DNA of 58,049 nt from Waddliaceae bacterium (lineage in GTDB: Bacteria > Chlamydiota > Chlamydiia > Chlamydiales > SLFE01). The notes beneath the pieces are model-generated. The model was not told the origin of the DNA, did no database searches, and saw nothing but the letters and a program-made list of their open reading frames with translations. This document shows positions 17,205 through 33,358 of this stretch, piece by piece (within the stretch, counting starts at the first letter, position 1; each line of letters begins with the position of its first letter). The DNA is taken from contig CAWAPJ010000002.1 of assembly GCA_963783885.1 (NCBI GenBank), positions 1-58,049 of the forward strand, written 5' to 3'. Made by a program: the position numbers and the translations under genes.

Positions 17205-18461
17205 ATGTCATTTGATACTCTCGGCTTATCGGCCGAACTCATTCTAGCTGTTACCGAACAGGGCTATAGCAATCCCACCCCGATCCAACGTCAGGCTATT
17301 CCTGTCATACTTAAGGGCTTAGATGTTTTGGGCGGTGCTGAAACCGGTACGGGAAAAACCGCCGGGTTTACCCTGCCGCTGCTGCATTGTTTAAATAAAA
17401 AAGTAGTGAGCAAAGGATGCTCTTCACCGCGCGCACTGATCTTAACGCCAACACGAGAACTTGCTGCCCAGGTGCATGAGAGCGTCAGGATTTATGGTAA
17501 GTATCTACCCTTGAAATCCACTGTCATTTTTGGTGGAGTCAATATTAATTCCCAGATTGCAAAACTTAAAAAGGGCGTTGACATCCTTGTAGCTACACCT
17601 GGACGTTTGCTTGATCATGTCAGTCAAAAAACCGTAGATCTTTCAAAAGTCGAAATCCTAGTGCTAGATGAAGCCGATCGAATGCTGGATATGGGTTTTA
17701 TTCACGATGTGCGGAAAATTATCAGACTGCTCCCTAGAAAAAGGCAGAATCTGCTTTTTTCGGCAACATTCTCAATTGAAATAAAAAAACTTGCAGACGA
17801 CTTTCTAAATTCTCCGGTAATGATCGAAGTAGCTCGAAAAAACATGGCATCAGAACATATAAAGCAGCTGATACATCCTGTTGACCGCAAGCTAAAACCT
17901 GAGCTGTTATCTCATCTGATTCGTACTGGAAACTGGAAACAAGCGCTAGTCTTCACTCGCACAAAACACGGTGCAAATCGTTTAACAAAGCAACTTGAAA
18001 AAGATGGGATCAGCGCTGTCGCCATCCATGGCAACAAAAGCCAAGCGGCCCGCACTAAAGCGCTAACGAGTTTCAAAAATGGGCTAGTGCGTATACTTGT
18101 TGCAACTGACATTGCAGCTCGAGGCTTAGATATCGATCAATTGCCGCATGTTGTCAACTTCGAGTTGCCGAATGTTCCTGAAGATTATGTGCATCGCATA
18201 GGCCGTACCGGCCGTGCCGGCAATAGCGGTGAGGCCATATCATTGGTCTGTATCGATGAACACAAACTTCTAAAGGATATAGAACACTTGACCAAACTCA
18301 AATTGCCAAAGGTTGTAATTTCCGGGTTTGAACCTGACCTAACGATTAAAGCTGAACCTATTCAAAAAATGCGCAAAGGCCGTTCTACTAAAAATCGCAG
18401 CTTCTTCGGCAAAGCAAAAGGAAAGCATCCATACAAGTCAATGAGATTGAAAAAAATCTAA
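17205..18461 (+). CDS. rhlE: DEAD-box RNA helicase RhlE
   Basis: Q motif, [29 protein letters not shown]-terminal GFEPD typical of RhlE; RBS GGAG upstream. Confidence 0.92.
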
Positions 18462-18676
18462 TTCCGCAGTCTCATAATGATTGAAATGGTTAAAATAGTT
18501 AACAATTAATCATCCTCAACGAAGGTCTCTGGAATTGATAACTCTTCTTTTTTTTCTTTTAACCTGCTCCCGTGCATAGCGTCAATTTCAGAAACTTGTT
18601 CCCTATCCTCTTGAGATAGATTCTTATGTTTAATAAGACTCATACGAAATGACTGGTTTTCTTTAAGGCAAAAGGG

Positions 18677-19467
18677 GGTAGTCCTAAACTTGTAATGCTT
18701 TTCTCTGGTTATAGTCACATATAAAATATTTTATCATGCCAATGTGGTTCTCACTAGCCTTGAGCATCGCTGCCCGAGCGTGTTATTAAATCTCTCAATG
18801 TAGCTTGTCTTACCTGACTCCTTTCCGACTGGGCGATGTTGTTCCCAAGGAAGGACTTCGTAGTAGATTGAGAACTTATCCGTATAAAAGACGGCTTTTT
18901 TTTTAAGTCCTCGGGGAGCTTCGCTAATAAGGATTCTGCTGCTTGCTTATTTCTTTTTCCTACATGCATAGCTAATACCTGTCGTGTACCTGAATGAAAT
19001 GCGAGCCAAAGCCATATTGGATTTTTTTTCTTTCCTACATAGCTCCACTGTTCATCAAGCTCAAGTAGAGTTTGAGATAGCTACCTCAAACTCTTCTTCT
19101 CCAGTTACATCCGCATTCAAATCTTCTGGAAGATCTTCGATTATTCTGTTCATAAAATTCAAAAGCCAGGGCATGCTGACGTCAAAGATTCTACAAATAC
19201 CTTCGAGAGAAACGTGTTCAAGCAATGCCTGTCTTACTCTTGATTTTGTCTCATCTGATATTATTTTTTGCAGAGGATCGATGACGAATTGCCTTCCACA
19301 AGACAAACACCTATGATTTTGCTTTCCACTGTGAATATGGCCGTTCTTTTTGATACTGGTGGATTTACAGTTAGGACAAGTGGGTGTCATTTGGGTCCTC
19401 CATTCGTTTTAGAAACAAAGGAAAACGCACAAGGAAATCAATGTCAATTCAAAAATTGAGCATTACA
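18677..19467 (-). mobile_element. Degenerate IS1-family element (insA/insB)
   Basis: CPNCKS...KKNG...GKQNHRCLSCGRQF; DEQWSYVG; A8G slippery site near 18897-18904; IERFN...QRCSRLV with an internal deletion; imperfect IRs GGTAGTCCTAAA / TGTAATGCTCAA; extra frameshift near 19070. Confidence 0.88.
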
Positions 19468-19908
19468 TGTTATGGACCACCCGCTCCTGCATATGATCTT
19501 AAATCAGTTCCAACAGCTACCAGTGATTCTGTTATATTTGATAAGGAATTAAATCAAGATATTTTGAAGATCTTTCAAGAGACTGGATGTACTTTATTGT
19601 TGGGAGATGGTGCAGGTTTAAATTATCTCTCCACAGACAAAAAAATCACTAAAATTTTAGAAGAATTAAAAAATTCATAAAATTCTTGATAGGGCCGTGA
19701 TAACCTATCTCGGAGCTTCATTAAGGAGCCAAAGCTGAATTTCGGATTGTTTTACGGCCTTGTTCACTTCTTTGGCTAGTTTTCGGTCGACTGCGAGGCC
19801 CCATCTGACGATCGATTGCTTCTCGGCAATAGCTAAAGCTATTCCCTTGTCGCAATCGTCACTTCCCGTGAAATAGTGTGGGAAAATTCTCCTCAAAGGC
19901 TTTTCTTT

Positions 19909-20070
19909 AACTCGACTTTATGATTTTTATCGTCTCGCTGGCTTCAGAGAGAACACTGATCTTTAAATTATTTTCACGGATTAGGTAATTTACCTGAATC
20001 CGTGAAAATAATTTAAAGCTGAGCGCCCTCTCTATTGCCATCAAATCGATAAAAATCATAAAGTCGAGTT
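19909..20070. repeat. 162-bp palindromic element upstream of the respiratory operon
   Basis: 24-bp perfect terminal IR AACTCGACTTTATGATTTTTATCG (19909-19932 / 20047-20070); 22-bp inner stem 19961-19982 / 19997-20018. Confidence 0.9.
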
Positions 20071-20122
20071 TAAAAAATGTCTGGTTTCTGTTACTTTTTT
20101 CCTTCAGTGGGGGAATTGTCGC

Positions 20123-21952
20123 ATGGAGGATGAGTTACAACGAGTTTATCGACAGCTCTATGATGTCGTCATCCCCGATCTCGATTATTATTTGCGCCAA
20201 ATTGACTGCAGGGACGGCTGTCCGGTGAATACGGACGGCAGGGGCTATATGCTGGCGATTCACGCGGGCAATTTGTTGGAGGGATACAAGATTGCCAGGG
20301 GGCCGAACCCTTTCGCTTCTATTTGCGGCATGATCTGCGGGGCGCCGTGCGAGATGACGTGCCGGAGGGACAGGGTCGATAAGACGCTGACGATTAGGGC
20401 GCAGAAGCGGTATTTGGACGAGTGGTTCGGTTTGGACAAAGAGGCTCATGTCAAGTCGCTGGAAATGAGTTACTCGAGGGGGTCGACAAATCCGAAACCC
20501 AACGGGCTGAAGGTGGCTTGCATTGGGGCGGGGGTGGCGTCGCTGACGGTCGCTCATGATTTGCTTCGTCTAGGGTATGCCGTCGATGTGTATGAGATGA
20601 TGCGGATGCCGGGAGGAATGCTGACTTATGGCGTGCCGACATATCGCCTGAAGAATGATGTGGCGTTGAATGAATGTTTCGCGATTGAACATCTCGGGGC
20701 GAACATCATTTGCAACTGCAAGGTGGGTCGCGATATCACGATGACCGAGCTCCAGGAAAAGTACGACGCTGTCTTTATCGGAGTGGGGCTTTGGAAGTCG
20801 AGGGATCTGCCGATACCGGGCGCGGATGGGCCTGACGTGATTCGGGGGATCGAGTATTTGCGGGTCAAGTGCGCTGAAGAGGAGTGGAAGATCGGCGACA
20901 ATCTGGTTGTTGTCGGGGGCGGAAATGTTGCGTTCGATGTGGCGAGGACTTCGGTGAGAAACGGGGCGAAAGTGACGATGGTGTGCCTTGAGGCGCGCGA
21001 TGAACAGACAGCGGATGAATTTGAGATCGAGGACGGGCTTGAAGAGGGGATTACGATCATCAACAGGATGGGCCCGAAAGAAATATTGCGCGATGAAAAC
21101 GGCAGGATTGAGGCGATCAGGGTGCAGCGGGTTTCGAAGCTTTTCAATTACAAGGGAGGATTCGCTCCGGAGTTCGTCGAGGGGGATGTGTTCGATATTC
21201 CCTGCAATGCGGTGGCTCTTTCTATTGGCCAGACAATGGACGAGAGTTTTTTAAATGGCTGGGATAGAAGAGACGAGCTGGTTGTCGAAAGAGGCGTTGT
21301 GAAGGTGGAGCGGGAGACGGGACGGACTTCTGTTGAAGGCGTGTATGCGGCGGGCGATGCTGCCTATGGGGCGGCGCTTTTCATTACGGCGATACGGCAG
21401 GGGCAGGAGACCGCGAGAGCGATCGACGCGGATCTTCGGGGGACGCGGCCGTACATGGAAGTTCTTGGGGAGTTTACCGAAATTTCTCCGATGAGAGGCA
21501 AAGAGTATTTGCGAACCGGTTATGCTTTGCCGACGTCGCAGCCTGCGCATGTTCGGCAGGACAATTACAATATGGTGGAAAACAACTATACGGCCGAAGA
21601 GGTGCATCAGCAGGCCAACCGCTGTCTGCAATGCCATGTCAATCCGGTTTTTGACGGAGCGCTTTGCATCAAGTGCAACGGGTGCGTCGATGTTTGTCCG
21701 TGCAATTGTTTGAAGCAGGTTCCGCTGAGTCAATTGAACATGGATCTTGGAGAGGGCAATATAAGAACGGCTGTCGATCATTATTACGGGATAGATTCTG
21801 CGAATACTGATGAGGAAGAACTTGAATTGATAGGGACGGCAATGTTAAAAGATGAAGATTTATGTATTCGGTGCGGACTGTGCGCTGAAAAGTGTCCGAC
21901 GCAGGCTGTGACGATGGATGTGATGAATTATTCTTTCCGGTGGATCGGATAA
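20123..21952 (+). CDS. FAD/NAD(P)-dependent iron-sulfur oxidoreductase (GltD/NfnB/DsrL-like) with C-terminal 2x[4Fe-4S] domain
   Basis: N-terminal CRDGCP...CGMICGAPCEMTC; GAGVAS and GGGNVA Rossmann motifs; AAGD; RCLQC; CIKCNGCVDVCP; CIRCGLCAEKCP. Confidence 0.9.
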   Translation: MEDELQRVYRQLYDVVIPDLDYYLRQIDCRDGCPVNTDGRGYMLAIHAGNLLEGYKIARGPNPFASICGMICGAPCEMTCRRDRVDKTLTIRAQKRYLDEWFGLDKEAHVKSLEMSYSRGSTNPKPNGLKVACIGAGVASLTVAHDLLRLGYAVDVYEMMRMPGGMLTYGVPTYRLKNDVALNECFAIEHLGANIICNCKVGRDITMTELQEKYDAVFIGVGLWKSRDLPIPGADGPDVIRGIEYLRVKCAEEEWKIGDNLVVVGGGNVAFDVARTSVRNGAKVTMVCLEARDEQTADEFEIEDGLEEGITIINRMGPKEILRDENGRIEAIRVQRVSKLFNYKGGFAPEFVEGDVFDIPCNAVALSIGQTMDESFLNGWDRRDELVVERGVVKVERETGRTSVEGVYAAGDAAYGAALFITAIRQGQETARAIDADLRGTRPYMEVLGEFTEISPMRGKEYLRTGYALPTSQPAHVRQDNYNMVENNYTAEEVHQQANRCLQCHVNPVFDGALCIKCNGCVDVCPCNCLKQVPLSQLNMDLGEGNIRTAVDHYYGIDSANTDEEELELIGTAMLKDEDLCIRCGLCAEKCPTQAVTMDVMNYSFRWIG

Positions 21953-22089
21953 TGTTTGAGACTTTGGTCTTTACATTGGCCGCCGGGTGTACAGGATTGT
22001 TGATCTGCCTGTACTTTTGGAGGAGGGGGCAGTTCGAAGATTGTGAAGATGTGAAATATCAAATGTTTCGTGATGAAGAGTGTGATTGA
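21952..22089 (+). CDS. CcoS-like cbb3 oxidase assembly microprotein (45 aa)
   Basis: TAATG coupling to the upstream gene; TM helix followed by [10 protein letters not shown]. Confidence 0.7.
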
Positions 22090-22091
22090 TT

Positions 22092-22604
22092 ATGCCTAAA
22101 CATAGAAATTCATTGAATGTCGACAAAGATAGCGAGGACCCGAGGATCTCCCGCCGATCGTTTCTTGCGCTTTTGGGGGTGGGAGCGGGAATCATCGGAG
22201 CGGGACAAATGTTCGGGGTGTCGATGCTGGGATTTCTATATCCCAACGCGATGAAGACGCCGCCGAGTACGTTTTCTATCGGCCGCCCGAATGAAGTGCT
22301 GTCGAAGGACGGAAAAATTTTTTACCCGAAGCAGAAAGTGTTTATCGAAACGCTTGGGGGGAAGGTGCGCGTGCAGACGGCTGTCTGCACTCACTTGGGC
22401 TGCACGGTGAATATGGTTGAGACGGGCTATGCCTGCCCCTGCCACGGGTCGACGTATGACCAGCATGGACGGAATACAGGGGGGCCTGCCCCTCTTCCGT
22501 TGGTTTACTTCAATGTTTATCAGGGGGCGTCAGGCGATATTATGGTGGACAAATCCAAGACAACACTGGACTACCGGGCGGCGTGGTTTTCGCCGACGGC
22601 ATGA
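22092..22604 (+). CDS. Rieske [2Fe-2S] subunit of a Rieske/cytochrome b complex
   Basis: Tat motif SRRSFL plus TM helix; CTHLGC and [15 protein letters not shown]. Confidence 0.95.
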
Positions 22605-22618
22605 ACTAAAGGAACGGT

Positions 22619-23944
22619 ATGGCAGTATTTACAGGAAAACCTCGGGAGACGTGGGCGGAGCATATTGCAAGACTCCCGGCCAATTTTGTGCGGTCGATTT
22701 TTCGGCATAACTATCCGAACAACGACGTGGATCGTTCGGAGATCGTTTTTAAGAATTTTTTTCTTCATTTTCATCCGGTAAAGTGCCACAAGCGCTCGCT
22801 CGACCCTTTTTATACTTTGGGACTGGGGACGATCACAACGAGCTTGTTTATCCTTTTGACGATTACAGGCGTGATATTGATGTTCTATTACATACCGGCC
22901 GAGGATCGGGCATTCAACATCATGAAGGACTGGCAGGACACGACGCCGTTTGCCATGATGTACCGCAATATGCACCGGTGGAGCGCTCATATGATGGTGC
23001 TTTTTGTGTTTTTGCACATGTCGCGGGTCTTTTACACGGCCGGATACAAAAGCACGCGGAAGTTTAACTGGGTTGTGGGCGTGATTTTAATGGTGCTGAC
23101 GCTTCTGCTTTCGTTTACTGGGTATCTGCTTCCCTGGGACCAGCTGGCGTTTTGGGCGGTGACGGTGGGATCGGAGATTGCCGGCTACGCGCCGAACATT
23201 CCCGGTTTTGAGTACAATATCAACAAAGTGATGCTGCTGGCGTCGACGACGGTCGGCCAAGATGCTTTGATTCGGTTTTACGTGCTGCATGTCGCGCTTC
23301 TTCCACTGGTGACGGGGATGATGATCGGGGTGCACTTTTGGCGCATCCGAAAAGATGGCGGGCTCTCCCGCCCTCCCGATAAAATCCGTCCCGATCCCTG
23401 CCGCGTGATTCAGAGGTCGGATACAAAAGAGTCGTTCGCTCCCGGAGTGAAGCGGACATACGGTTTGATGGAGCTTGTGAGGGGAACATGTCCGACAGTG
23501 GACAAGGGGCCTTACAAATTCGTGTTTACATGGCCGCATCTTTTGAGGGCGGAGCTTTTGGTCTTTTTCCTGACGACGGTGCTTATTTTGGGGCTGAGTT
23601 TTATCAACGCCCCGCTCGAAGAGCCGGCCAACCCGAGCAAGCCGCCGAACCCGTCGAAAGCTCCTTGGTATTTTCTGGGGTTGCAGGAGATGGTTTCTTA
23701 CAGCGCGTTTTGGGGCGGCGTTGGAATTCCGGCGTTGATTATTGTTGGATTGATGCTCATCCCCTATCTCGATCGCAACCCCAATGGCGAGGGATACTGG
23801 TTTCACAGAAGCCGCTACCTGGCTGTCTTCTTGTATACCGCGTTTATGACAATGCAGGGGATATTGATTGTGATTGGGTCGATATTTAGAGGGGCTAACT
23901 GGGGATGGATATGGCCTTGGACAGAAACATTTGCGAGACACTAG
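22619..23944 (+). CDS. Cytochrome b (b6 + subunit IV fused)
   Basis: Heme ligands in MHRW, FLHMSRVF, FYVLH, GVHFW; GYLLPWDQ; APLEEPANP...APWYF. Confidence 0.95.
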   Translation: MAVFTGKPRETWAEHIARLPANFVRSIFRHNYPNNDVDRSEIVFKNFFLHFHPVKCHKRSLDPFYTLGLGTITTSLFILLTITGVILMFYYIPAEDRAFNIMKDWQDTTPFAMMYRNMHRWSAHMMVLFVFLHMSRVFYTAGYKSTRKFNWVVGVILMVLTLLLSFTGYLLPWDQLAFWAVTVGSEIAGYAPNIPGFEYNINKVMLLASTTVGQDALIRFYVLHVALLPLVTGMMIGVHFWRIRKDGGLSRPPDKIRPDPCRVIQRSDTKESFAPGVKRTYGLMELVRGTCPTVDKGPYKFVFTWPHLLRAELLVFFLTTVLILGLSFINAPLEEPANPSKPPNPSKAPWYFLGLQEMVSYSAFWGGVGIPALIIVGLMLIPYLDRNPNGEGYWFHRSRYLAVFLYTAFMTMQGILIVIGSIFRGANWGWIWPWTETFARH

Positions 23945-23945
23945 A

Positions 23946-26900
23946 ATGAGACTTAGATCGGAAGATTATTATCAAATCGCGCTCATCGCATCGGCGGTGG
24001 TGGTTACGGTTTTGTTCGGAGTCTTTTTATATCGCGAGATTTACCCTCAGTATAAGATTTTTCAGAAAGATTACGTGGCTCTTGAGGACTTTCGATCGAC
24101 TTATACAGCAGCCCCTCCTCCCCCGTTTAAATTCGGGGTGAAACAGATTGTGATACCCGATCCGGAAAAAGGTCCTCCAACGATCGACAGGTGCATCTCC
24201 TGCCATGTGGCCCTTAAATTTGAACATTTTTCCCCGACAGTGATTGCCCGCGATGTGAACGGCTTAATCATCTACGACAAAAACGGTGTTCCAAAGAAGG
24301 GGCCAAATCCGAATTATATCTGGAAAAAGCTCGATGAAAAAATCGCCGACTTGAAGCAAAAAGGCGATGATGGCAAAGCCGAAAGGCTAGAGTCTTTAAA
24401 AACCGTTCATGTTGACGGCCACGACTACCGGGTCGACAAAGCGCTGATCATGCACCCTTTGATTGGAAGGGAGACTCGTCCCTTCGAGTATCATCCGATT
24501 GATGAGTATGGATGCGCGGTATGCCATGGAGGAAATGGAAGAAGCCTTGTCACATCCCGCGCACACGGTCCTGTTTATGAAGGGCAGTATGAAGAAACTT
24601 ATATGGGTCCGAAGCCGGAGTTTCTCGAAGAGGATATCGAGAACAATCCGAAGTTTGCCAAAGCTTACAGCGGCAAGCCGGGCCACGAGCTCCTTTTTCA
24701 AACGACGCCGCTTCTTGTGGGGAATTTAATTCAGGCCAAATGCGTTCTCTGCCACAAGCCGACAAGCCAGAAATTGTCCGGCCTGGCGTCCAATGTCAAA
24801 AAGGTTGCCGAGACGAAATCGGAGCAGATCGATGTGATCAGGAAAGCATTTGAGCAGGAATACAACGCTTTAGTGGCTCTTCTTTCCTTAAGGAAGTTTT
24901 TGAATGATCGAGGGATTCAGCAGGCGTTCAAGACTCTGCAGAAACAATCGGAGAACTACGCCCTTCCTCCCGAGGAGCTGAAAAAGATTCGGGGCAACAT
25001 CAACTATTTGCGCGAGTCGATTGTTCAGGCGGAGCAGGAGCCTTATCAGGAACAGAAGGTTTTGAAAAAAATCGATGCGGATCTGCTGAAGCTTTTAGGA
25101 TCGAAGAAAGTTGTCGAGGCAGTGCAGAAGGCGTTTGATAAAAATGAAGATATGACCCTGGATCAGATGTGGGAGCTTTTGAAGAAAGAGAGGGGTGAAG
25201 GGAATCAGGGATCGCTTTATATCAAAGGCGAAATTCTTGAGAAGCAAAAAAGTCTGAAGACCAGTGTGGAAAGCATGACCTATTCGGTGAGCCGGGCGGC
25301 GGGGTCGAAGGAATTGGTTTCGGGACTTGAAAGCGATATCGATCGGTTGACGAAAGATTTTCAGCGAGGCGAAGAACTTTTCTTCTCCCAGGCCTGCTAT
25401 GCCTGCCACAGAATTACCGGCCTTTCGCGGGGAGGCGTCGGCCCCGAGCTGACCGATGAAGGGCTTCGGGAGCCGTGGTTTGTCAAAGAGTCGATTGTGT
25501 GGCCGCAGGCGGACCTGAAAACCTCGACGATGCCAAACTACAAAATGGATCACGAAGAGGTCGAAGATCTCGTGACCTTTCTGCTCGCGCAGCGCCCCGA
25601 AAACCAGTCGAGGCAGGGGATGGTGGAGAAGAGCCGCCTGAAAGCTTGGGAAGAGGGGAAAAAGAACGAGTGGGAAGAGGCGATAGCTCCCGGAGAGATA
25701 CGGGATTTGCAAAGAGCGATGGAGATTTTTGCGACCGAAGGGTGTGCCGCTTGCCACCGGTTGAAAGGTTTTGACGCGAATGTCGGGTTCGCCATTGAAA
25801 AAGACAATCCCACTTTTGATGAGCTGTATGAAGAGAAGCAATGGTTCCAAAAACTGTTCCCCGAGCATGAGCTCGGATCAAATATTGTGCAGACGATCGA
25901 AAGTCACAAGGAAGAGATCGACAAAAGAATTGTCGACAGTGTGCGCAAAGACGCCATTTTGGATGAGATAGAAAAGAAATATCCTAAGCTCATCGAATCC
26001 TTTTATGCCGATTTTAAATTTGCCTCGCGGGCCAAAAATCATGAGTATGAAACGCAGATCGAAAACGCATCGAGTCCGGAAAAGAAAAGGGCTTTAAAAG
26101 AAGGGCTTAGCGCCTGGAAAGAGCGGGTTCATCGGATTTTGCTCATGTTTGTTCAGGAATATGGGCTCGGAAGGCAGATCGGCCCTAGGCTGAACTGGTC
26201 GGGCATCTATCGATCGGACAAATGGCTGATGGAGCACTTTTGGAATCCCTCGTCGCTTGTGGCGCGCTCGATCATGCCTGTTTTTCCTTTTGACAATACT
26301 AAGTTTTTGGCTCTGACTTATATGCTCGATTCCCTGGGTCAAAAAAATCGCAGCGAGCTCAGAGAAGTTTGGGACAACAAGGGCTTCAATCCCGAAATGG
26401 CTTTCGATATGCTTTGCGCCCAGTGTCATGGAAACCATTTAAAAGGGAACGGACCCGTTTCGGAATGGATTTATCCCGTTCCGAAAAATTTGAGCAATCC
26501 TGTCTTTATGCGCAATTTGACAAAAGAGCGGGCGATCGAGTCGATCACTCATGGGATCCATGGCACCCCTATGCCTCCCTGGGGAGAAGCGGCAACAGAC
26601 AAAAACTTTGTCAATAATGCTCCTGTGTTGGGAAAAGACGATATTGCCGAGCTGGTGAACTGGATATACCGCAATCTTCCGGGAGAGAGATTTATTCGGG
26701 AAGAAGAGAAAGAGGTGCAGAAGTGGGAATACCGCCCGGAAGATGTGATTCGGGATCTCCAGAAAGCAGGAGATGTTTTAAAGTCGAAGCCGCAGTCGAG
26801 CTTGGGGCTTCCCACAGGTGAAGAGTATATCGCCTCGCTGATCCCGGTGATAGCTGCGGCGCCCTCAAAAAACCTGACAGTCGAGGATGTTTTCGATGTT

Positions 26901-27983
26901 GTGCCCAATCCTTATGGCGGCCCGGAAAAAAACAATTACTATATCAAAAAGAAGTACTATACCAAAGAGAATCTAGCTGAAGGGAAGGCGTTTTTTGAGC
27001 TCAACTGCGCCATATGCCATGGCAAGGAGGCCGATGGCGCAGGTCTTCGCGCCGGAGTTATGGAAGAGGCAAAGCCTAGAATGCTCATCAATCTTCCGTG
27101 GATTGAAAGCCGAGATGATTTGAGGCTGATCCGTTCAATCTATTATGGCGTTCCCGGTACATCCATGATCCCATGGGGGGACCAGACAACGTCGAAGCAG
27201 CGCCTACAACTTGTGATGTATATACGGAGTTTGACGGAAAGTAAGAGGGATTACGAACAGTTTAAAAATGTTCTCTTTCAAGTTTTTCAAAATCCTATCT
27301 GGGCCATTGAAGACGCCCGTTCGTCTGTGTCGAAAAAGATCAAGGAGTTGGAAAAACAGTCTTATGAAACGAGAGAGGCGCGCCAGAAGATGGAAGATCT
27401 GGTCAAAACGGGACAGGTGAAGCCGGAGAAGATCGCTGCCGTCTACAGCAAGGAGCTCAATTCCCTAAGAAAGCTTCAAAAGTATCGAGAGACAGACGAA
27501 ATCCTTGCCGATTTGATTGGCCAGGTCAAAAAAGAACAAAATCTTTACCAGTCTCTGGGCGACTCGATTTTCAAACTGTATGGCGAATCGGTGGCTTTTA
27601 CCGATTTTTTGAAAGCTATTGCTGCGAATCAAAATCATTTTTCCTATGAAGATGGAAAACTCCAGCAGCGGCATGCCGATGAAAAAAAACTTGCAGAGTT
27701 TAAAACCGATATTTTAAAGATCATCGGCGATGATATTCAAGTTCTCAAATATCAGGAAAGTGTGGAAAAGGGAAAAATTTCAACATCTGGAAAAAGAGAA
27801 AAACTCAGCGAGATCAAAAAAAGCTTGCAGCAGCAAAAACAGCTTGAAAACGAGACCATATCGACTTTTTCCCAGCTTGACCGTTTGCGTGAAAAGCAAA
27901 AGAAAACTTATGAAGATTATATGAAAAAACTCAAGACTTTGGAACAAAGCGATGACAGAAGCAGCGAAAGCAAAATATCATGA
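23946..27983 (+). CDS. Membrane-anchored multiheme cytochrome c (7 CXXCH) with helical/coiled-coil inserts
   Basis: CISCH, CAVCH, CVLCH, CYACH, CAACH, CAQCH, CAICH; N-terminal TM helix; ATG two bases after the cytochrome b stop. Confidence 0.9.
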   Translation: MRLRSEDYYQIALIASAVVVTVLFGVFLYREIYPQYKIFQKDYVALEDFRSTYTAAPPPPFKFGVKQIVIPDPEKGPPTIDRCISCHVALKFEHFSPTVIARDVNGLIIYDKNGVPKKGPNPNYIWKKLDEKIADLKQKGDDGKAERLESLKTVHVDGHDYRVDKALIMHPLIGRETRPFEYHPIDEYGCAVCHGGNGRSLVTSRAHGPVYEGQYEETYMGPKPEFLEEDIENNPKFAKAYSGKPGHELLFQTTPLLVGNLIQAKCVLCHKPTSQKLSGLASNVKKVAETKSEQIDVIRKAFEQEYNALVALLSLRKFLNDRGIQQAFKTLQKQSENYALPPEELKKIRGNINYLRESIVQAEQEPYQEQKVLKKIDADLLKLLGSKKVVEAVQKAFDKNEDMTLDQMWELLKKERGEGNQGSLYIKGEILEKQKSLKTSVESMTYSVSRAAGSKELVSGLESDIDRLTKDFQRGEELFFSQACYACHRITGLSRGGVGPELTDEGLREPWFVKESIVWPQADLKTSTMPNYKMDHEEVEDLVTFLLAQRPENQSRQGMVEKSRLKAWEEGKKNEWEEAIAPGEIRDLQRAMEIFATEGCAACHRLKGFDANVGFAIEKDNPTFDELYEEKQWFQKLFPEHELGSNIVQTIESHKEEIDKRIVDSVRKDAILDEIEKKYPKLIESFYADFKFASRAKNHEYETQIENASSPEKKRALKEGLSAWKERVHRILLMFVQEYGLGRQIGPRLNWSGIYRSDKWLMEHFWNPSSLVARSIMPVFPFDNTKFLALTYMLDSLGQKNRSELREVWDNKGFNPEMAFDMLCAQCHGNHLKGNGPVSEWIYPVPKNLSNPVFMRNLTKERAIESITHGIHGTPMPPWGEAATDKNFVNNAPVLGKDDIAELVNWIYRNLPGERFIREEEKEVQKWEYRPEDVIRDLQKAGDVLKSKPQSSLGLPTGEEYIASLIPVIAAAPSKNLTVEDVFDVVPNPYGGPEKNNYYIKKKYYTKENLAEGKAFFELNCAICHGKEADGAGLRAGVMEEAKPRMLINLPWIESRDDLRLIRSIYYGVPGTSMIPWGDQTTSKQRLQLVMYIRSLTESKRDYEQFKNVLFQVFQNPIWAIEDARSSVSKKIKELEKQSYETREARQKMEDLVKTGQVKPEKIAAVYSKELNSLRKLQKYRETDEILADLIGQVKKEQNLYQSLGDSIFKLYGESVAFTDFLKAIAANQNHFSYEDGKLQQRHADEKKLAEFKTDILKIIGDDIQVLKYQESVEKGKISTSGKREKLSEIKKSLQQQKQLENETISTFSQLDRLREKQKKTYEDYMKKLKTLEQSDDRSSESKIS

Positions 27984-29397
27984 CGGTCCGACAAAGTGGC
28001 TGATCTATCCGGCCCTCTGTTTTATGATTGTAGGGATGACCATCGGGGTTTTTATCTCCTACAACACATTTATCTTCCCCGATTATTTTTCGGGCGAGTA
28101 TATCCATTTCGGGAAACTCAGGCCTGTCCACGTGATGGGCGTTTTGCTCCTTTGGCTGCTGTCGGCGAACCTGGGACTTTGCTATTTTTTGGTGCAGAGG
28201 CTTTGCGGGGTGAGGATATGGAGCGTCAAACTCGCTTACGTGTCGATCGCCCTTTGGTGGTTCGGATTGATCTTTAGCCAGTTTTCCTATCCCTTCGGAA
28301 CAAATTACGGTTGGGAGTATGACGAAACTCCCATGTTTGTTTGGTGGCTGCCGGTTAAGCCGATTATTGTTTTGGCTTGGGTTTTGACGCTGTTTAATTT
28401 TTATGCCACTACTTATTACAGAAAAAATGAAAAGCTTTATGTTTCGATGTGGTATGTTCTTGCCGCGATGCTTTGGGCGACTGTGGTCTTTTGGGTGGGA
28501 GGCTTTAGCTTGGAGTTTTTGCCGATGGGGATTTCGCGGGTAAACGCGGAGTTCTTTTATGTCCACAACTTGGTTGGATTGATATTCACTCCCCTGGGAC
28601 TTGCGATTGCTTATTATTATCTGCCAAAGCTTGCCAATACGCCGATATACAGCCATAAATTGTCGATGATCGGTTTTTGGTCTCTTGCCTTTGTCTATGG
28701 CTGGGTCGGGGCCCACCATATCATTCATGGACCGATCACCCAATGGATCCAGACGGTTTCGATCATCTTTTCGGTTTGGCTTTTCGTTCCGGTCTTTACC
28801 GTTGTCCTCAATATTTTTGCCACGCTCCAGCCGAATTGGAAGCAGTATACCGAAAGCGCCGCCGTCCGTTTCATTGTGATGGGAAACATATTCTATCTGA
28901 TCACCTCGGTTCAGGGGACGTTTATGGCCCTTCGCAATATCAACGAAATCACATCCAAAACCGATTGGGTGATTGGACACTCCCATATTGCCCTTTACGG
29001 AACGTTCACGTTTTTTGCTATGGCAGGCATTTTTTATGTGGTTCCGGTGATGACCAAAAAGCCCCTTTGGTCGACAAAACTTGCCAACTGGACGTTTGCC
29101 CTAAATGTCTTTGGAAGCGTCCCCTTTATTTTGGCGCTCTGGATAGGCGGCTATCTTCAGGGGCTGATGTGGGCGAGTTGGGCGACGGGGGTCACCTATG
29201 CCGAGTTTCAGGCCAATTTGAGCAATCTCCCCTTTTTGCAAACGCTGGCCAATACGTACCCCTGGTGGCTTCTCCGCAGCATCGGCGGGACGATTATTCT
29301 TTTTGCCAACATTTTATTTGTGGTCAATATTTTCAATACGATTGTGTTAAAACCGAGAGAGGATGTGGCGAAAGTTAACGTTGAGGCGGCAACATGA
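27952..29397 (+). CDS. ccoN: cbb3-type (C-family) heme-copper oxygen reductase subunit I
   Basis: LRPVH, FYVHNLVG, YYYLPK...PIYSHKLS, VYGWVGAHH, TDWVIGHSH. Confidence 0.9.
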   Translation: MTEAAKAKYHDGPTKWLIYPALCFMIVGMTIGVFISYNTFIFPDYFSGEYIHFGKLRPVHVMGVLLLWLLSANLGLCYFLVQRLCGVRIWSVKLAYVSIALWWFGLIFSQFSYPFGTNYGWEYDETPMFVWWLPVKPIIVLAWVLTLFNFYATTYYRKNEKLYVSMWYVLAAMLWATVVFWVGGFSLEFLPMGISRVNAEFFYVHNLVGLIFTPLGLAIAYYYLPKLANTPIYSHKLSMIGFWSLAFVYGWVGAHHIIHGPITQWIQTVSIIFSVWLFVPVFTVVLNIFATLQPNWKQYTESAAVRFIVMGNIFYLITSVQGTFMALRNINEITSKTDWVIGHSHIALYGTFTFFAMAGIFYVVPVMTKKPLWSTKLANWTFALNVFGSVPFILALWIGGYLQGLMWASWATGVTYAEFQANLSNLPFLQTLANTYPWWLLRSIGGTIILFANILFVVNIFNTIVLKPREDVAKVNVEAAT

Positions 29398-30668
29398 GCG
29401 AAAACAATAATAAGAAATTTATGGATACTGTCCATCGGTCTTTTTTGCTCACATTTTTGGGCATCGTCCTTCTGTTTTCTACTGCTATCACGGTGACTCT
29501 CATCGCCCCGAGGCATGTCGACCCCACATGGAAGCAGCCGTCGAGCTATTATCAGGTGCAGATGTTCGAAGTTGCCGACCCCAATTTTTTTATCAGCAGC
29601 GAAGCCAGTGGAATCAAAAGACTCGAGTATATCAAAAGGCTTGTGAAGGATTTCAGTCTTCTTGCATTCGAGGAAAACGAGACCTCGAGAATTATCGCTC
29701 CTCCCGAACTTGAAAAGTTTGTCACGAAAAACGGAGAAAAGAAGCTCAAACTCACCTCGCGGCTTCTTTTGCTTCGCGATCCGGTATCGTCTGAGCAATT
29801 CGATGCCGAAAAAATCGCGAAAGACTTGAAAGAAAAGCTTCAACAAGAGTCCAAGAAGCAGGGTAAATATTTGATCGACTACAGGATTTTAGAGCTCTAC
29901 GATCCCGGCCTTGAAGAAGCGTTTACCATGTCCAGCTCAGAGGGAATCATAGAAGATTTTGTCGATCAAGATTACGAGATTTTGGACAATGAGCCCAAAC
30001 AGCTGTGGCACCGCGATCCCGGAGTGATCTTCACAAAAAATCCCGAAGAGTACCGCATCCGGCCGATCGGTACCGGCAGGCAGAGAGGCTGGAGGTACGA
30101 TCCGGAAGGCAAAAGAATTGAAGGCGTTTCCCAGCTGGAGAGCCCCGAGCTTGGATTCCGTTCAAGGAAAGAGCTGATCGAATTGGGGCAGACCACTTAT
30201 GCGCATGAGGGATGCTGGTACTGCCACACCCAGCAGACAAGAACGCTTGTGCAAGATGTTGTGCTCAACGGCTCCGAATCCTATCCCGCTCCCCCGTCCG
30301 CACCCAATGAATACATCTATCAAAAGGTCTCCTTCCCGGGCACAAGGCGCATCGGTCCCGATTTATCGCGCGTGGGGGTCAAGAGGCCGAGCAGAGACTG
30401 GCACAAAGCTCATTTTTGGTCGCCAAGAACAGCCAGCGCGGGAAGCATCATGCCGTCGTTCCGCCATTTCTTCGACTTCAACCCAAGGGGAACGAGAAAA
30501 ACGGTAGTGGGCATTCCCAATTACCGCTTCGAGGCCGTCTACCAGTATTTGATGACGATGGGCACCCGCATCACTCCCCCCACAGAAGCGTGGTGGCTGG
30601 GCAAGGACCCTGTGCAAACTTTGGAAATTATCGAAGGGAGGAAAGCCGTTGATCATCGCGGACCTTGA
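29394..30668 (+). CDS. ccoO: cbb3-type oxidase subunit II, enlarged
   Basis: TM helix; G...YAHEGCWYCHTQQTR; GTRRIGPDLSRVG; WHKAHFWSPR...SIMPSF; ATGA coupling to ccoN. Confidence 0.88.
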   Translation: MSENNNKKFMDTVHRSFLLTFLGIVLLFSTAITVTLIAPRHVDPTWKQPSSYYQVQMFEVADPNFFISSEASGIKRLEYIKRLVKDFSLLAFEENETSRIIAPPELEKFVTKNGEKKLKLTSRLLLLRDPVSSEQFDAEKIAKDLKEKLQQESKKQGKYLIDYRILELYDPGLEEAFTMSSSEGIIEDFVDQDYEILDNEPKQLWHRDPGVIFTKNPEEYRIRPIGTGRQRGWRYDPEGKRIEGVSQLESPELGFRSRKELIELGQTTYAHEGCWYCHTQQTRTLVQDVVLNGSESYPAPPSAPNEYIYQKVSFPGTRRIGPDLSRVGVKRPSRDWHKAHFWSPRTASAGSIMPSFRHFFDFNPRGTRKTVVGIPNYRFEAVYQYLMTMGTRITPPTEAWWLGKDPVQTLEIIEGRKAVDHRGP

Positions 30669-30822
30669 CGGATTCGGCGTGACCGGATCTTATCTGCACT
30701 TTACCCTCTCCGCAGCTTTAGTGGGAAGCTCCCTTCTGGTTTTGATTGTGCTGTGGCGAAAAGGGCGCCTCGACTTTGACGAGAGCCCAAAAATCACTAT
30801 GATGGAAAGTGACGAAGGATAG
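30649..30822 (+). CDS. Second CcoS/CcoQ-like single-TM microprotein (57 aa), not in the ORF track
   Basis: GGAGG RBS at 30637-30641, TTG start; MIIADLDGFGVTGSYLHFTLSAALVGSSLLVLIVLWRKGRLDFDESPKITMMESDEG. Confidence 0.65.
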   Translation: MIIADLDGFGVTGSYLHFTLSAALVGSSLLVLIVLWRKGRLDFDESPKITMMESDEG

Positions 30823-30825
30823 CTT

Positions 30826-31092
30826 ATGAGCGAGAAAGAGTATCTGTTTTACGAGGATGACGACTCCGTCCCACCCTATAAAAAAGAGGACCCCGGCGTG
30901 CCCCTTTGGCTGAAGCTTGTGATTCTGACCGTCCCATTTTGGGGATTTGCCACATTTTACATCTACTGGAACGGCAATTTCGGGGACTGGCTCGACAGGG
31001 GCTACTGGGGCGAGCTTCAGCAAGCGGCCAACACCACTTTTCCCCCCGAGACCAAAATCCCCGCTTCAGCAAAGAAGATTGAAGAGAAGTAG
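30826..31092 (+). CDS. CcoP N-terminal-like membrane protein lacking heme domains
   Basis: DPGVPLWL...WGFATFYIYW...GYW resembles the CcoP membrane anchor; no CXXCH. Confidence 0.6.
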   Translation: MSEKEYLFYEDDDSVPPYKKEDPGVPLWLKLVILTVPFWGFATFYIYWNGNFGDWLDRGYWGELQQAANTTFPPETKIPASAKKIEEK

Positions 31093-31178
31093 CTCTTTGG
31101 AAAAGCTAAAAATACCTGATTATAGCTTTCCAAGAGAGCTAAAAATATCCAAATTTAGTTTTCTTAGAGAGCTAAATC

Positions 31179-32231
31179 TTACTGGACAGGAGAGCTATTG
31201 CTAAGCTGTCCTTTGATTTCATCCAAGACCTCATCGACGGTGATCTCCTTCATGCAGCGAAAGTCTATGGGGCAGACTCTTTTGTAGCAGGGCGAGCAGG
31301 AGGGCCGTTTGTGGATGACCACCCCGCCGTTGTAGGGGCCGGTTTTGATGTCGCTTGTCGAGCCGAAAAGGGCGACAAGCTTTGTGCCGAGGGCAGAGGC
31401 GATGTGCATCGGCCCGCTGTCATTGGTGAGGAAGACGTCGCAAAGCTGGATCAGGGCCATGAGCTCGCGGAGGTTGGTTTTTCCCGCAAGGTCGATGACT
31501 CTTTCGGGAAGGTCTTTGCAGATATGGTCGACCAAGGGCCTTGTTTTACTGTCCCCGAAAAAAATGATGTAGGTGTCCGGGTCTTCGATGAGCCTGCCTG
31601 CCGTCTCGCAGAACCTTTCGGGAATCCAGCATTTGGCGCTGCCGTAGGCGGCCCCCGGGTTGATCCCGACAATCGTTTTCCCTTCCGGAATTTTGCATCG
31701 CCTGAGAAGCTCTTTCGCGCCTTGGATCTCATCGTAGCTGACGTAGAGTTTGGGCGCGGTTTTGGACAGCGGTATCCCCAAAGGGAGGAGGAGGTGTTTA
31801 TAGACATTGACGAGGTGGAGGTTTTCCTTGTCCTCGGGAAAGGGAACGGATTTGTTCAGCAAGGGGTCTCGCATATCGCCTCTAAAGCCGACGCGGTTTT
31901 TTACGTGGCCGCGCCAAAACCACCATGCCGAGGAAAAAGAGTTGGTCAGCAGAATGCCGAGGTCGTAGTCTCCATGCCTCAAAGGGTTGAGGATATGGCG
32001 CGCGGCATCCCTGTGGAGCCAGCCGCTCGGCCGGTTGAAAGTGAATATTTCATCGATATTGGGGTCGTTTAAGAGGAGCTGCCCTCCAGGCTCTTGGCAC
32101 ATAGCGGTCAATTTGGCATCGGGCCACCGGCTTCTAATATCCTGCATAACAGGAGTGGCCATCACAAGATCCCCGAGCCAGTTGGGCATTCTGACGATGA
32201 TGTTTTTAGGGGTATTTACCTTAAATCCCAT
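31179..32231 (-). CDS. waaF: Lipopolysaccharide heptosyltransferase II (GT9)
   Basis: PNWLGDLVMATP, NPGAAYGSAKCW, LAGKT, NDSGPMHIA, LFGST, CSPC...CP...CM. Confidence 0.92.
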   Translation of the reverse strand: MGFKVNTPKNIIVRMPNWLGDLVMATPVMQDIRSRWPDAKLTAMCQEPGGQLLLNDPNIDEIFTFNRPSGWLHRDAARHILNPLRHGDYDLGILLTNSFSSAWWFWRGHVKNRVGFRGDMRDPLLNKSVPFPEDKENLHLVNVYKHLLLPLGIPLSKTAPKLYVSYDEIQGAKELLRRCKIPEGKTIVGINPGAAYGSAKCWIPERFCETAGRLIEDPDTYIIFFGDSKTRPLVDHICKDLPERVIDLAGKTNLRELMALIQLCDVFLTNDSGPMHIASALGTKLVALFGSTSDIKTGPYNGGVVIHKRPSCSPCYKRVCPIDFRCMKEITVDEVLDEIKGQLSNSSPVQ

Positions 32232-32489
32232 AGATTAAAAATGATGCTTAAGTGAGAATAATTTAGCAAGAGGGATTTCGATGCAGTTTTTACAAGTAAG
32301 TGTGAGAAAAGCGGGTGCGAAAGAGAGGTATTCTCATCAAATCTTTTTCGTGAAATGACCTTGAAACCGCCCTAATTCTTCTCAAAGACCTCTTATTTTC
32401 AATTGCAAGAAAATATTTAATTATCTTGAATTAAATATTTTATTTTGATATAATTTTTTTTAATATAAAAAATATTAAGGAGTAATACT

Positions 32490-33358
32490 ATGCAAGTAGA
32501 TAAAACTAATCAAACTAAATCAACAAATAATACAGGGCAAAATTCAGCCTCTCTTGACCCTGCGGGCGTTCTCCCTGGTGAAATGGTTTTAGGGATATTT
32601 TCCAACTTAGGCCCTGCTGATCTTGCGGCATGCCAGCTGGTCAGCAGAACCTGGCAACCCTTGGCAGTAGATCCCAAGCTTCCTGGTTTAAACGCCATAG
32701 CTCAAGTTCGCGAGCTGAAAAAGGAATTCCCCCATCTTTTCATCTTTGGTCCCGAAGAGTGGATAACATACTATGGCAGTATCGATATAAATGATATTCC
32801 CCCTGTTAAACCGCAAATGATCAAGATTCTCGAAGACAACTGGCCCAAATGCCAAAGAAGGAAAGGTCATGAGATCCTTAAGCTGACTTATTTTCCTAAA
32901 ACCGTCAATGGAAAGCCGCTGACCCTGAACAACTTTGAAGATCTGATCAAGAACCCCCAAAAGGGTCATGCGACTGAATATCATTACTTTTCGTGTGATG
33001 CTAGGAAAGAACATGGCGACACACCGATCGAAAGAGCCCATTGGACTTTATCGACAAAAGATGTAATCGAAGGAAGCAAAGGCAAACCAAAGGATGAGCT
33101 ATTGGCCCTTGCCAAAAGTATTGGCCCCGGCTGGGAAGGAGCCCACAGCATTGGAAGCGGTAGTCTCTACTGCATCAGAGCATACCGCCACAGGAGTTTC
33201 GTCGACTTGGTGGCAGTCCTTTTTTTACATATACGCTCTGTAAAGAGCAGACATCTGGGAATAAAGTAGCGGTTGGCGGCTTTGGCAGCACGGGGCTCCG
33301 CATCATCCGCAACTTCCTTTCCGAAAACGTCGGTGTTGCGTCGCAGTGGAAGTCCTAA
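32490..33358 (+). pseudogene. F-box-like domain effector protein; several +1 indels at ~33140-33230
   Basis: F-box LPGEMVLGIFSNL...CQLVSRTW; downstream frames continue PTALEAVVS...TYTLCKE...VGGFG...VGVASQWKS* ending at 33358. Confidence 0.7.

Follow-up and report, generated by a model that had tools for sequence, protein, structure and literature searches.

A conserved nine-gene chlamydial block predicted to join an NAD(H)-type flavoprotein, a Rieske/cytochrome b pair and a heptahaem cytochrome c to a cbb3 oxidase

Could nine tightly packed genes of a chlamydia encode a single respiratory module and, if so, which way would electrons run through it? The question is raised by contig CAWAPJ010000002.1 of the Waddliaceae bacterium assembly GCA_963783885.1, a window of 58,049 nucleotides (nt; the whole stretch of DNA analysed), in which positions 20123-31092 hold nine intact plus-strand open reading frames (ORFs), none of them broken, for an iron-sulphur (FeS) flavoprotein, a Rieske/cytochrome b pair, a heptahaem cytochrome c, cbb3 oxidase subunits and small peptides. 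Sequence comparisons indicate that the module is real, conserved and a variant of known NAD(P)-linked Rieske/cytochrome b complexes, its function being predicted: as judged from the sequences, the cofactor-binding parts are intact, the genes are packed as a unit and they are inherited together. That the nine encode one respiratory module we hold to be somewhat more probable than the contrary. The genes are named g1 to g9 in operon order, 5′ to 3′:

g1, 20123..21952, plus strand: FeS flavoprotein, 609 amino acids (aa), predicted to be cytoplasmic (Pfam, NCBIfam).
g2, 21952..22089 (ORF listed from 21892), plus strand: 45-aa single-helix CcoS/FixS-like peptide (family-level match to FixS, PF03597).
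g3, 22086..22604, plus strand: Rieske [2Fe-2S] protein with a twin-arginine translocation (TAT) signal and a membrane anchor (Pfam Rieske, 35.6 bits; TAT and b6f/bc1 Rieske models match).
g4, 22619..23944, plus strand: cytochrome b, 441 aa, b6 part fused to subunit IV part, ~7 transmembrane (TM) helices (Pfam, NCBIfam).
g5, 23946..27983 (ORF open from 23874), plus strand: membrane-anchored heptahaem cytochrome c (seven CXXCH motifs, one TM helix, Pfam).
g6, 27952..29397, plus strand: CcoN, catalytic subunit of a cbb3-type (C-family) haem-copper oxidase (COX1, E 6e-75).
g7, 29394..30668, plus strand: CcoO, 424 aa, one CWYCH haem motif (FixO, 79.5 bits against a cut-off of 29.6, over residues 262-361 only).
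g8, 30649..30822, plus strand: 57-aa single-helix peptide in the ccoQ position (hhalign to the g2 family).
g9, 30826..31092, plus strand: 88-aa haem-less CcoP/FixP N-terminal anchor with a conserved WNGSxGWLDRGYW motif (FixP_N in orthologues).

At every junction the genes overlap by 1-32 nt or lie at most 14 nt apart. The g1 stop overlaps the g2 start (TAATG, with the g2 ATG at 21952); g2 and g3 overlap by 4 nt, or are 2 nt apart if g3 starts at its ATG; the 14-nt gap between g3 and g4 carries an AAGGAA motif; g5, when started at the ATG at 23946, follows g4 after 1 nt and overlaps g6 by 32 nt; g6 and g7 meet in ATGA; g7 and g8 overlap by 20 nt, with GGGAGGA 5′ of the TTG start of g8; and 3 nt separate g8 from g9. 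For g2 and g5 the start in the ORF list probably lies too far 5′, by 60 and 72 nt respectively. An earlier note on this DNA, made from its letters, had described nine co-oriented genes forming a single compact, operon-like block; the near gap-free packing confirms the first statement and, with the conservation of the block as a unit, the second, and the gene labels given there hold by Pfam and NCBIfam matches, 'CcoP stub' for g9 being moderately supported only.

Conservation and loss of the block

A g5 search of a species-genome collection gave four loci, from two Waddliaceae, one Parachlamydiaceae and one further metagenome-assembled genome (MAG), and all four hold the nine genes in the same order, two of them with frame breaks typical of long-read assemblies. 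The host had been taken for a chlamydia from the start, in accord with these named Waddliaceae and Parachlamydiaceae relatives, and the proposed check by homology and synteny comes out as co-conservation within Chlamydiota: across 20 loci from 13 family codes (one on the same contig as L004), g1 to g7 stand in order in 19, and in the remaining one g1 is co-oriented but ~4 kb away, 5′ of g2. The flavoproteins of the 20 loci share 70-90% identity with g1; tblastn missed g8 in five of these loci and g9 in one. Locus L052 (G303:C1:2036500-2044500), in a complete genome, has ~4 kb inserted between its flavoprotein and CcoS-like genes.

The phylum was sampled with 401 genomes, including the window's own, and the lists of cytochrome b and CcoN carriers were compared by hand. 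Cytochrome b was present in 88 genomes (74-100% identity except two weak matches) and CcoN in 95; 85 had both, 10 had CcoN only and three had cytochrome b only (two of them weak). Neither gene was found in family codes f4 (0/30, genomes of ~1.1 Mb), f8 (0/35) or f9 (0/90), and the small f4 genomes thus agree with the earlier statement that pathogenic Chlamydiaceae lack a bc complex.

Four of the ten genomes with CcoN and no cytochrome b were inspected; they were chosen by that feature and related genomes are not independent, so that they give a pattern, not a statistic. On a single contig, L133 (G055:C1:2376000-2394000) holds intact CcoN, CcoO, g8 and g9, together with g2, a remnant of g1 (its C-terminal part) and a fragment of the Rieske gene. 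L135 (G156:C36:24000-38969) has kept g2, g5, CcoN, CcoO, g8 and g9 and has lost g1, g3 and g4. A deletion in L136 (G366:C3:28500-46500) runs from cytochrome b residue 32 to g5 residue 629 and fuses the two, and L134 (G109) has a divergent CcoN only. In five of five CcoN-bearing genomes without cytochrome b (G055, G156, G109, G095 and G216), no flavoprotein was found at E <= 1e-10, barring the G055 remnant, which has two stops. Because the two are lost together in genomes that keep CcoN, the fate of the flavoprotein follows cytochrome b and not the oxidase, which is a new observation here. In the two variants that keep oxidase genes (L133 and L135), g2 stays with the oxidase.

The best 120 homologues of g1 in a first protein search were chlamydial only, and in a library of 50%-identity representatives the chlamydial flavoproteins were merged into a single cluster (75% identity, 1097 bits), after which the nearest relatives come at 42-46% and at most 496 bits. 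Metagenome contigs were scanned with an alignment of 13 distant flavoprotein relatives, which gave 80 loci, and these were searched with the nine window proteins by tblastn. Flavoprotein, Rieske and cytochrome b genes follow one another in that order, with no cbb3 match, in 53 of these loci. In another 14, CcoN and/or CcoO immediately precede the flavoprotein gene; nine of them show the full string Rieske, cytochrome b, multihaem cytochrome, CcoN, CcoO, flavoprotein, and five are cut short. One locus, L053, has the chlamydial gene order, and in 12 the flavoprotein stands alone, 11 of them with <2 kb on at least one side. Counted by neighbours, Rieske and cytochrome b lie directly 3′ of the flavoprotein in 54/80 loci, and CcoN and/or CcoO lie beside it in 15, of which 10 also carry Rieske, cytochrome b and multihaem cytochrome genes.

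L118 encodes a flavoprotein that matches a Bryobacteraceae MAG protein at 100% identity and those of Paludibaculum, Holophaga, Geothrix and Mesoterricola at 73-84%, along with a 603-aa heptahaem cytochrome. L053, whose flavoprotein has relatives at 70-77% identity in MAGs named as Bacteroidetes, Bacteroidota and Ignavibacteriae, divides its haems over two proteins (5 + 2), encodes a CcoS-like peptide between its flavoprotein and Rieske genes and has a split cytochrome b. CcoO is of normal length in both (198-208 aa) and lacks the chlamydial extra of ~200 residues. The gene set with seven haems occurs, then, also in Acidobacteriota and in Bacteroidota-like contigs, and the block is not chlamydia-specific. 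In an unrooted FastTree tree of 101 flavoproteins, the chlamydial sequences form one clade (support 100) with L053 and L054 adjacent (96, with a long-branch warning); all 14 loci with the flavoprotein last fall in one clade, and 60 loci without cbb3 genes in another.

A 4.5-kb contig of a chlamydial MAG (L051, G199:C155:1-4491) carries a second, divergent pair, with a flavoprotein of 42% and a cytochrome b of 49% identity. It groups in the tree with the non-chlamydial cbb3-less loci, and is either a paralogous cluster or contamination.

These distributions bear on whether the flavoprotein belongs to the chain at all. The remaining genes could make up a conventional bc and cbb3 chain with a normal Q cycle, and g1, which has no predicted TM helix and comes from a family with many soluble enzymes, such as NfnB and GltD, could be a separate soluble enzyme that shares the promoter; the docking described below would support its binding to cytochrome b only slightly. 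We consider this improbable. Adjacency is kept in 20/20 chlamydial genome loci; 68 of the 80 distant homologue loci adjoin Rieske/cytochrome b or oxidase genes, the other 12 being mostly too short to judge; flavoprotein and cytochrome b are co-lost in all five genomes noted above; and, according to work cited in PMC12954380 and PMC5600118, the anammox homologues migrate together with their complexes (papers are quoted, here and below, from the parts of them consulted).

A search for RNA sequencing runs covering 21093-31092 listed none. The ~1.66 kb 5′ of the block (18462-20122) hold only short ORFs without a Pfam or Rfam match, and an Rfam search of the whole window gave no match. Consensus promoter and terminator scans of 18400-32400 gave 19 and 23 sites, against 13.0 +/- 4.5 and 16.6 +/- 4.6 in shuffled sequence, so that terminators are not above chance and the scans are uninformative. 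One feature lies directly 3′ of g9:

31090..31141: hairpin, a possible terminator, between the end of g9 and a convergent heptosyltransferase gene (RNA fold).

The fold of 31088-31180 has -28.8 kcal/mol (z -4.9, with 0/200 shuffles as stable), and the hairpin has no trailing T run. Two genes 3′ of the operon, at 32490-33269 on the plus strand, is an F-box protein (Pfam F-box-like, E 8e-9), a eukaryote-like domain. The guanine + cytosine (GC) content is 0.40 upstream of the operon and 0.52 in its first gene (GC skew there +0.28). Recent horizontal transfer, raised by the higher GC of the operon, was rejected, the block being kept across 13 family codes and the chlamydial flavoproteins forming one clade.

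Cofactor sites and the predicted electron path

Do the encoded proteins have what a working chain would need? In g3 the Rieske cluster boxes read CTHLGC and CPCHGSTY and the Pfam Rieske match is above cut-off. CPCHGS[TV]Y is found in 21/21 chlamydial loci, which thus keep both Ser and Tyr, the pair that accompanies +303 mV in the anammox Rieske protein Kuste4569 (PMC12954380). The four haem-ligand His of g4 (H119, H133, H224 and H239) align with solved b6 and do not vary across 26 sequences. Where b6f has the Cys for covalent haem cn (CxGG motif), g4 has Thr, and this T66 is likewise invariant in 26 sequences (20 chlamydial + 6 acidobacterial). The quinol oxidation (Qo) motif is APWY, as in 20/21 chlamydial loci, and belongs to the 'APWY clade' of Kao and Hunte 2014, which spans several phyla, is uncharacterised and possibly runs in reverse (PMC4122944).

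The CXXCH motifs of g5 stand at residues 107, 214, 290, 508, 624, 848 and 1045, and seven are present in 20/21 orthologues, L028 having six. Besides the trihaem part at its N-terminus, the protein has a class I domain and two CcoP-type domains, a CcoO-like stretch (767-815) and two long insertions that are helical, with Pfam matches to Cytochrom_C, Cytochrome_CBB3 and FixO. The insertions (~residues 300-490 and 1130-1369) differ between lineages, and the first is absent in L023 and L037. An AlphaFold2 (AF2) model of residues 485-1140 reached a predicted local distance difference test (pLDDT) of 76, and one of the trihaem part (25-335, 17-row alignment) a mean of 59.8, with the region of haems 2-3 <50. 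Against the Protein Data Bank (PDB), Foldseek gave the 485-1140 model one match at E <= 0.001, the Kuenenia dihaem subunit 6h5l_B, the remaining matches being generic class I cytochrome c domains. That g5 might hold a recognisable whole CcoP fold is unsupported, since CcoP and CcoO are not among the Foldseek matches listed.

Among the oxidase genes, g6 has cbb3 CcoN chains as its best solved relatives, and the motifs for haem b, haem b3, the CuB His and the helix VII Tyr align, their assignment to particular ligands being our assumption. The ~200 extra residues of g7 lie between the anchor helix and the haem domain, and the full length is kept in the chlamydial loci. The g2 copy of this window scores 20.6 bits against the FixS cut-off of 23.1, and 19/21 of its orthologues match at E <= 0.01 (best 3e-11). 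Family-versus-family hhalign (98.4%, E 1e-14) makes g8 a paralogue of g2; g8 itself has no Pfam match, and within its family FixS was matched by 0/13 members and FixQ by 1/13. Of 19 g9 orthologues, five match FixP_N (best 1.8e-5), while the copy here matches no Pfam family; the two best PDB profile matches of g9 are CcoP N-terminal anchors (E 0.078 and 1.6). No CXXCH motif was found in g9, which is thus no dihaem CcoP subunit; the CcoP-type haem domains are in g5. Neither FixH nor FixG_C was found in the genome, which is 88.9% complete.

In the flavoprotein, Pfam recognises Fer4_20 (E 1e-13), Pyr_redox_2 (4e-23) and a C-terminal 4Fe-4S dicluster domain (3e-9), with Fer4_20 and the FAD/NAD(P) domains above cut-offs. 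Its closest solved relatives are NfnB, GltD and the NfnB-like domains of larger oxidoreductases, and its Fer4_20 and FAD/NAD(P) (flavin and nicotinamide adenine dinucleotide) domains match solved members of this family at E 1e-49 to 1e-76. Unlike these, the NfnB/GltD-like N-terminal 440 aa are followed by a C-terminal 2x[4Fe-4S] domain with an extra conserved CxxC, and the genomic partner is a membrane cytochrome b. A further difference lies in the nucleotide site: after the second Rossmann beta2 strand g1 reads Cys-Leu-Glu, where 9bov and 9n5u read Tyr-Arg-Arg, and Glu290, at the Arg-Arg position of NfnB-type enzymes, is invariant in 26 sequences. Because Glu stands where NADPH-type enzymes have the Arg-Arg that we take to bind the 2′-phosphate of NADPH, the Leu-Glu replacement points to NAD(H) over NADP(H).

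The rest of the genome supplies several of the parts expected around such a chain. System II cytochrome c maturation is represented by CcsB (679 aa, L040:565-2604, plus strand, contig C3) and by the last ~30 codons of CcsA (PF01578), which lie at the end of contig C31, an assembly gap. CcsA first appeared absent; its loss was rejected, the gene being cut by the contig end, and CcsA is present in 5/5 relatives tested. The quinone is likely menaquinone, because MenB scores above cut-off; the MqnA/MqnD family (PF02621) was not found in the genome. A second haem-copper oxidase subunit I (L001, G000:C29:69886-74235; COX1 485 bits, 658-aa open frame) presumably belongs to an A-type quinol or cytochrome c oxidase. 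The genome yielded no soluble cytochrome c, and the only other c-type cytochrome detected is an anchored dihaem protein of 300 aa with SoxA/TsdA-like and class I domains (L046:3765-4664, minus strand, = G000:C7), which might pass further electrons to the haem wire or to the oxidase.

Put together, these parts suggest a menaquinol:O2 chain with an NAD(H) branch on cytochrome b, an assignment to which we give slightly better than an even chance. Menaquinol would be oxidised at the APWY-type Qo site of a b6f-like Rieske/cytochrome b complex. The high-potential electron would leave the Rieske cluster for the membrane-anchored heptahaem cytochrome c, which would replace both cytochrome c1/f and the absent haem domains of CcoP, and from there would pass to CcoO and CcoN, where O2 would be reduced. 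The low-potential electron would move through both b haems towards the cytoplasm; on that face the flavoprotein would dock by its C-terminal ferredoxin-like domain, its FeS clusters and FAD linking the b haems to NAD(H). The two CcoS-like peptides may serve the oxidase, in maturation or as small subunits. The earlier note supposed that such a chain might suit an intracellular symbiont at low oxygen, which stays a conjecture.

Physical association and the direction of electron flow

Would the flavoprotein bind where this path places it? Structure prediction, which the earlier note had proposed as a check, was applied to a cytochrome b dimer (26-row alignment) and flavoprotein residues 493-609. 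The C-terminus was placed on the dimer with an interface score (ipSAE) of 0.40 (0.39-0.45 in three runs), against 0.00 for the best of three controls, in a job that used its own alignments and was unlike the calibration set. At least 68% of contacts are shared between the runs, and the partner pLDDT is at least 63. In the calibration, the ipSAE mark is reached by 58/80 solved complexes and 2/110 mismatches, and at <=0.60 by only 7/80 solved complexes and both passing mismatches. The model thus leans towards the proposed contact, and the score would raise the odds that the flavoprotein binds cytochrome b only slightly.

Whether the two halves form one body is a separate matter. The electron path could be the same without a stable supercomplex, with the heptahaem protein as a tethered shuttle between two complexes and the operon reflecting co-regulation only. 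We think this quite possible, if not the arrangement to which we lean. The helical insertions of g5 vary and are absent in two lineages, as for a flexible tether; the L135 variant keeps g5 and the oxidase without Rieske or cytochrome b; and the Foldseek matches of g5 to dihaem QcrC of obligate III2IV2 supercomplexes are weak (E ~0.04, target TM 0.33-0.35). On the other side, no soluble cytochrome c was found, the sole other c-type cytochrome detected being the anchored dihaem SoxA/TsdA-like protein, and CcoP is reduced to its anchor, with its type of haem domain within g5, suggesting that g5 docks on the oxidase.

The least certain step is the direction of the electrons through the flavoprotein. 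Quinol-driven NAD+ reduction is favoured because a high-potential-type Rieske protein occurs in a menaquinone organism, and by analogy with anammox; it is the likeliest direction, though short of an even chance, with NADH as donor next in probability and some other arrangement last. We tentatively propose that the module may be an O2-pulled, electron-bifurcating menaquinol:NAD+ oxidoreductase, the NADH re-entering via ion-pumping NADH dehydrogenases. One electron would go to O2 via the heptahaem wire and cbb3, the other uphill via the b haems, FeS clusters and FAD to NAD+, and an 'extended Q cycle' through the NADH pool would harvest the large gap in potential from menaquinol to O2. In the anammox arithmetic, one electron dropping ~450 mV pays for 250 mV uphill (PMC12954380).

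The same anatomy would fit the opposite direction, with the flavoprotein as the entry point, reducing b haems or quinone at the cytoplasmic face of a self-contained NADH:O2 oxidoreductase. Such a reaction is downhill and simple, with no uphill step, the invariant Glu290 at the Arg-Arg position fits NAD(H), and the joint loss of flavoprotein and cytochrome b fits either direction. This NADH-fed chain nevertheless strikes us as doubtful: Na+-NQR, and Nuo in many members, already do this job (PMC9816063); a predicted high-potential Rieske protein with a low-potential quinone is the signature that anammox authors tie to very low-potential b haems, unneeded for an NADH donor; and the APWY Qo clade, uncharacterised, is discussed for unusual or reverse operation (PMC4122944).

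The menaquinol:O2 chain with an NAD(H) branch, and quinol-driven NAD+ reduction in particular, has in turn several points to contend with. The module is known here from genes alone, g6 scores 260 bits under TIGR00780, below the 583 cut-off, and g1 is below NCBIfam equivalog cut-offs. A docking pass in the range obtained is expected to be false more often than true, save for a contact that was already likely. Because variants keep the oxidase without Rieske and cytochrome b, the oxidase half may work, or linger, alone, and an A-type oxidase is also in the cell. Anammox models put haem cn beside the path to the reductase, and since the Cys for this haem is absent from g4, the route drawn for electrons in Kuenenia does not carry over as it stands. 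Given the NADH dehydrogenases present in the phylum (Na+-NQR, plus Nuo in many members; PMC9816063), NAD+ reduction by quinol would be an apparent futile loop unless coupling rises.

Comparison with known systems

How much of this is already known? The components are: in Baymann et al. 2012, the cytochromes b of Parachlamydia and Waddlia fall into group A2 together with Kuenenia 1 and 2 (PMC3509893), and Dharamshi et al. 2023 report cbb3 oxidase (CcoO/N) and cytochrome bc (PetBD) in protist-associated chlamydiae and their loss in Chlamydiaceae (PMC9816063). Their 'PetBD' and 'CcoO/N' are the same genes as here, treated as separate complexes, and the sections consulted, supplements aside, mention neither the flavoprotein, the heptahaem protein nor a single operon (PMC9816063). 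The novelty claimed at the outset was thus overstated, these components having been listed in chlamydiae before (PMC9816063, PMC3509893). In searches of the open full-text literature, supplements and subscription papers aside, we found no description of the joined flavoprotein-Rieske/b-heptahaem-cbb3 operon, of its flavoprotein or of experiments on it. What published pathway charts draw as chlamydial 'complex III' and 'cbb3' boxes is one genetic unit with two components that they do not list.

The oxidase half resembles canonical cbb3 CcoNOQP with ccoGHIS (3mk7/5djq, 6xkw, 9g83) in its CcoN ligand motifs, monohaem CcoO, CcoS-like peptide and small peptide in the ccoQ position. It differs in that only the anchor of dihaem CcoP is kept, CcoO has a 200-aa insertion, two CcoS-like genes lie within the structural operon, and FixH and FixG_C are missing from the genome as assembled (88.9% complete). 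In actinobacterial bcc-aa3 supercomplexes (7q21, 6adq), too, a membrane-bound multihaem cytochrome c replaces the soluble carrier, and QcrC is among the g5 Foldseek matches, albeit weakly (E ~0.04) and with the physical association here putative. The bc1-cbb3 assembly of Rhodobacter is a III-IV supercomplex wired by a bound cytochrome c. Both of these systems lack a flavoprotein, have two haems rather than seven, and are encoded in separate operons.

The closest likeness, by published description, is to the anammox complexes of Kuenenia stuttgartiensis (Kustd1480-1485 and Kuste4569-4574), in which genes for a Rieske protein, a b6-type cytochrome b and a multihaem cytochrome c cluster with one for a cytoplasmic FeS flavoprotein, in a menaquinone user whose Rieske protein has the potential-raising Ser (and Tyr) (PMC12954380, PMC5600118). 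The flavoprotein is of the kind found in those Rieske/cytochrome b clusters, as the earlier note had supposed (PMC12954380, PMC5600118), and such cytochromes b co-occur with NAD(P)-binding FeS proteins 'in many other cases' (PMC5600118). The chlamydial version departs from the anammox one in four respects: its cytochrome b is fused, not split; the haem cn Cys is absent; its nucleotide site looks NADH-type; and its positive-side partner is a cbb3 O2 reductase, reached via the heptahaem protein, instead of modules like hydroxylamine oxidoreductase (HAO) or other anaerobic ones. For more than ten years, Rieske/cytochrome b complexes that bear an NAD(P)-flavoprotein have been hard to explain in anammox bioenergetics, and NAD(P)+ reduction by the anammox enzymes is proposed, not demonstrated, with function and direction unresolved in the papers cited (PMC12954380, PMC5600118). 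Here the same design would be wired to O2, an ordinary and easily supplied acceptor, in carriers that can be grown (amoeba-hosted chlamydiae and cultured Acidobacteriota with homologues), which makes it testable by standard membrane biochemistry. If bifurcation proves true, chlamydiae, Acidobacteriota and Bacteroidota-like bacteria would hold an aerobic, tractable form of the reaction proposed for anammox bacteria but never shown there.

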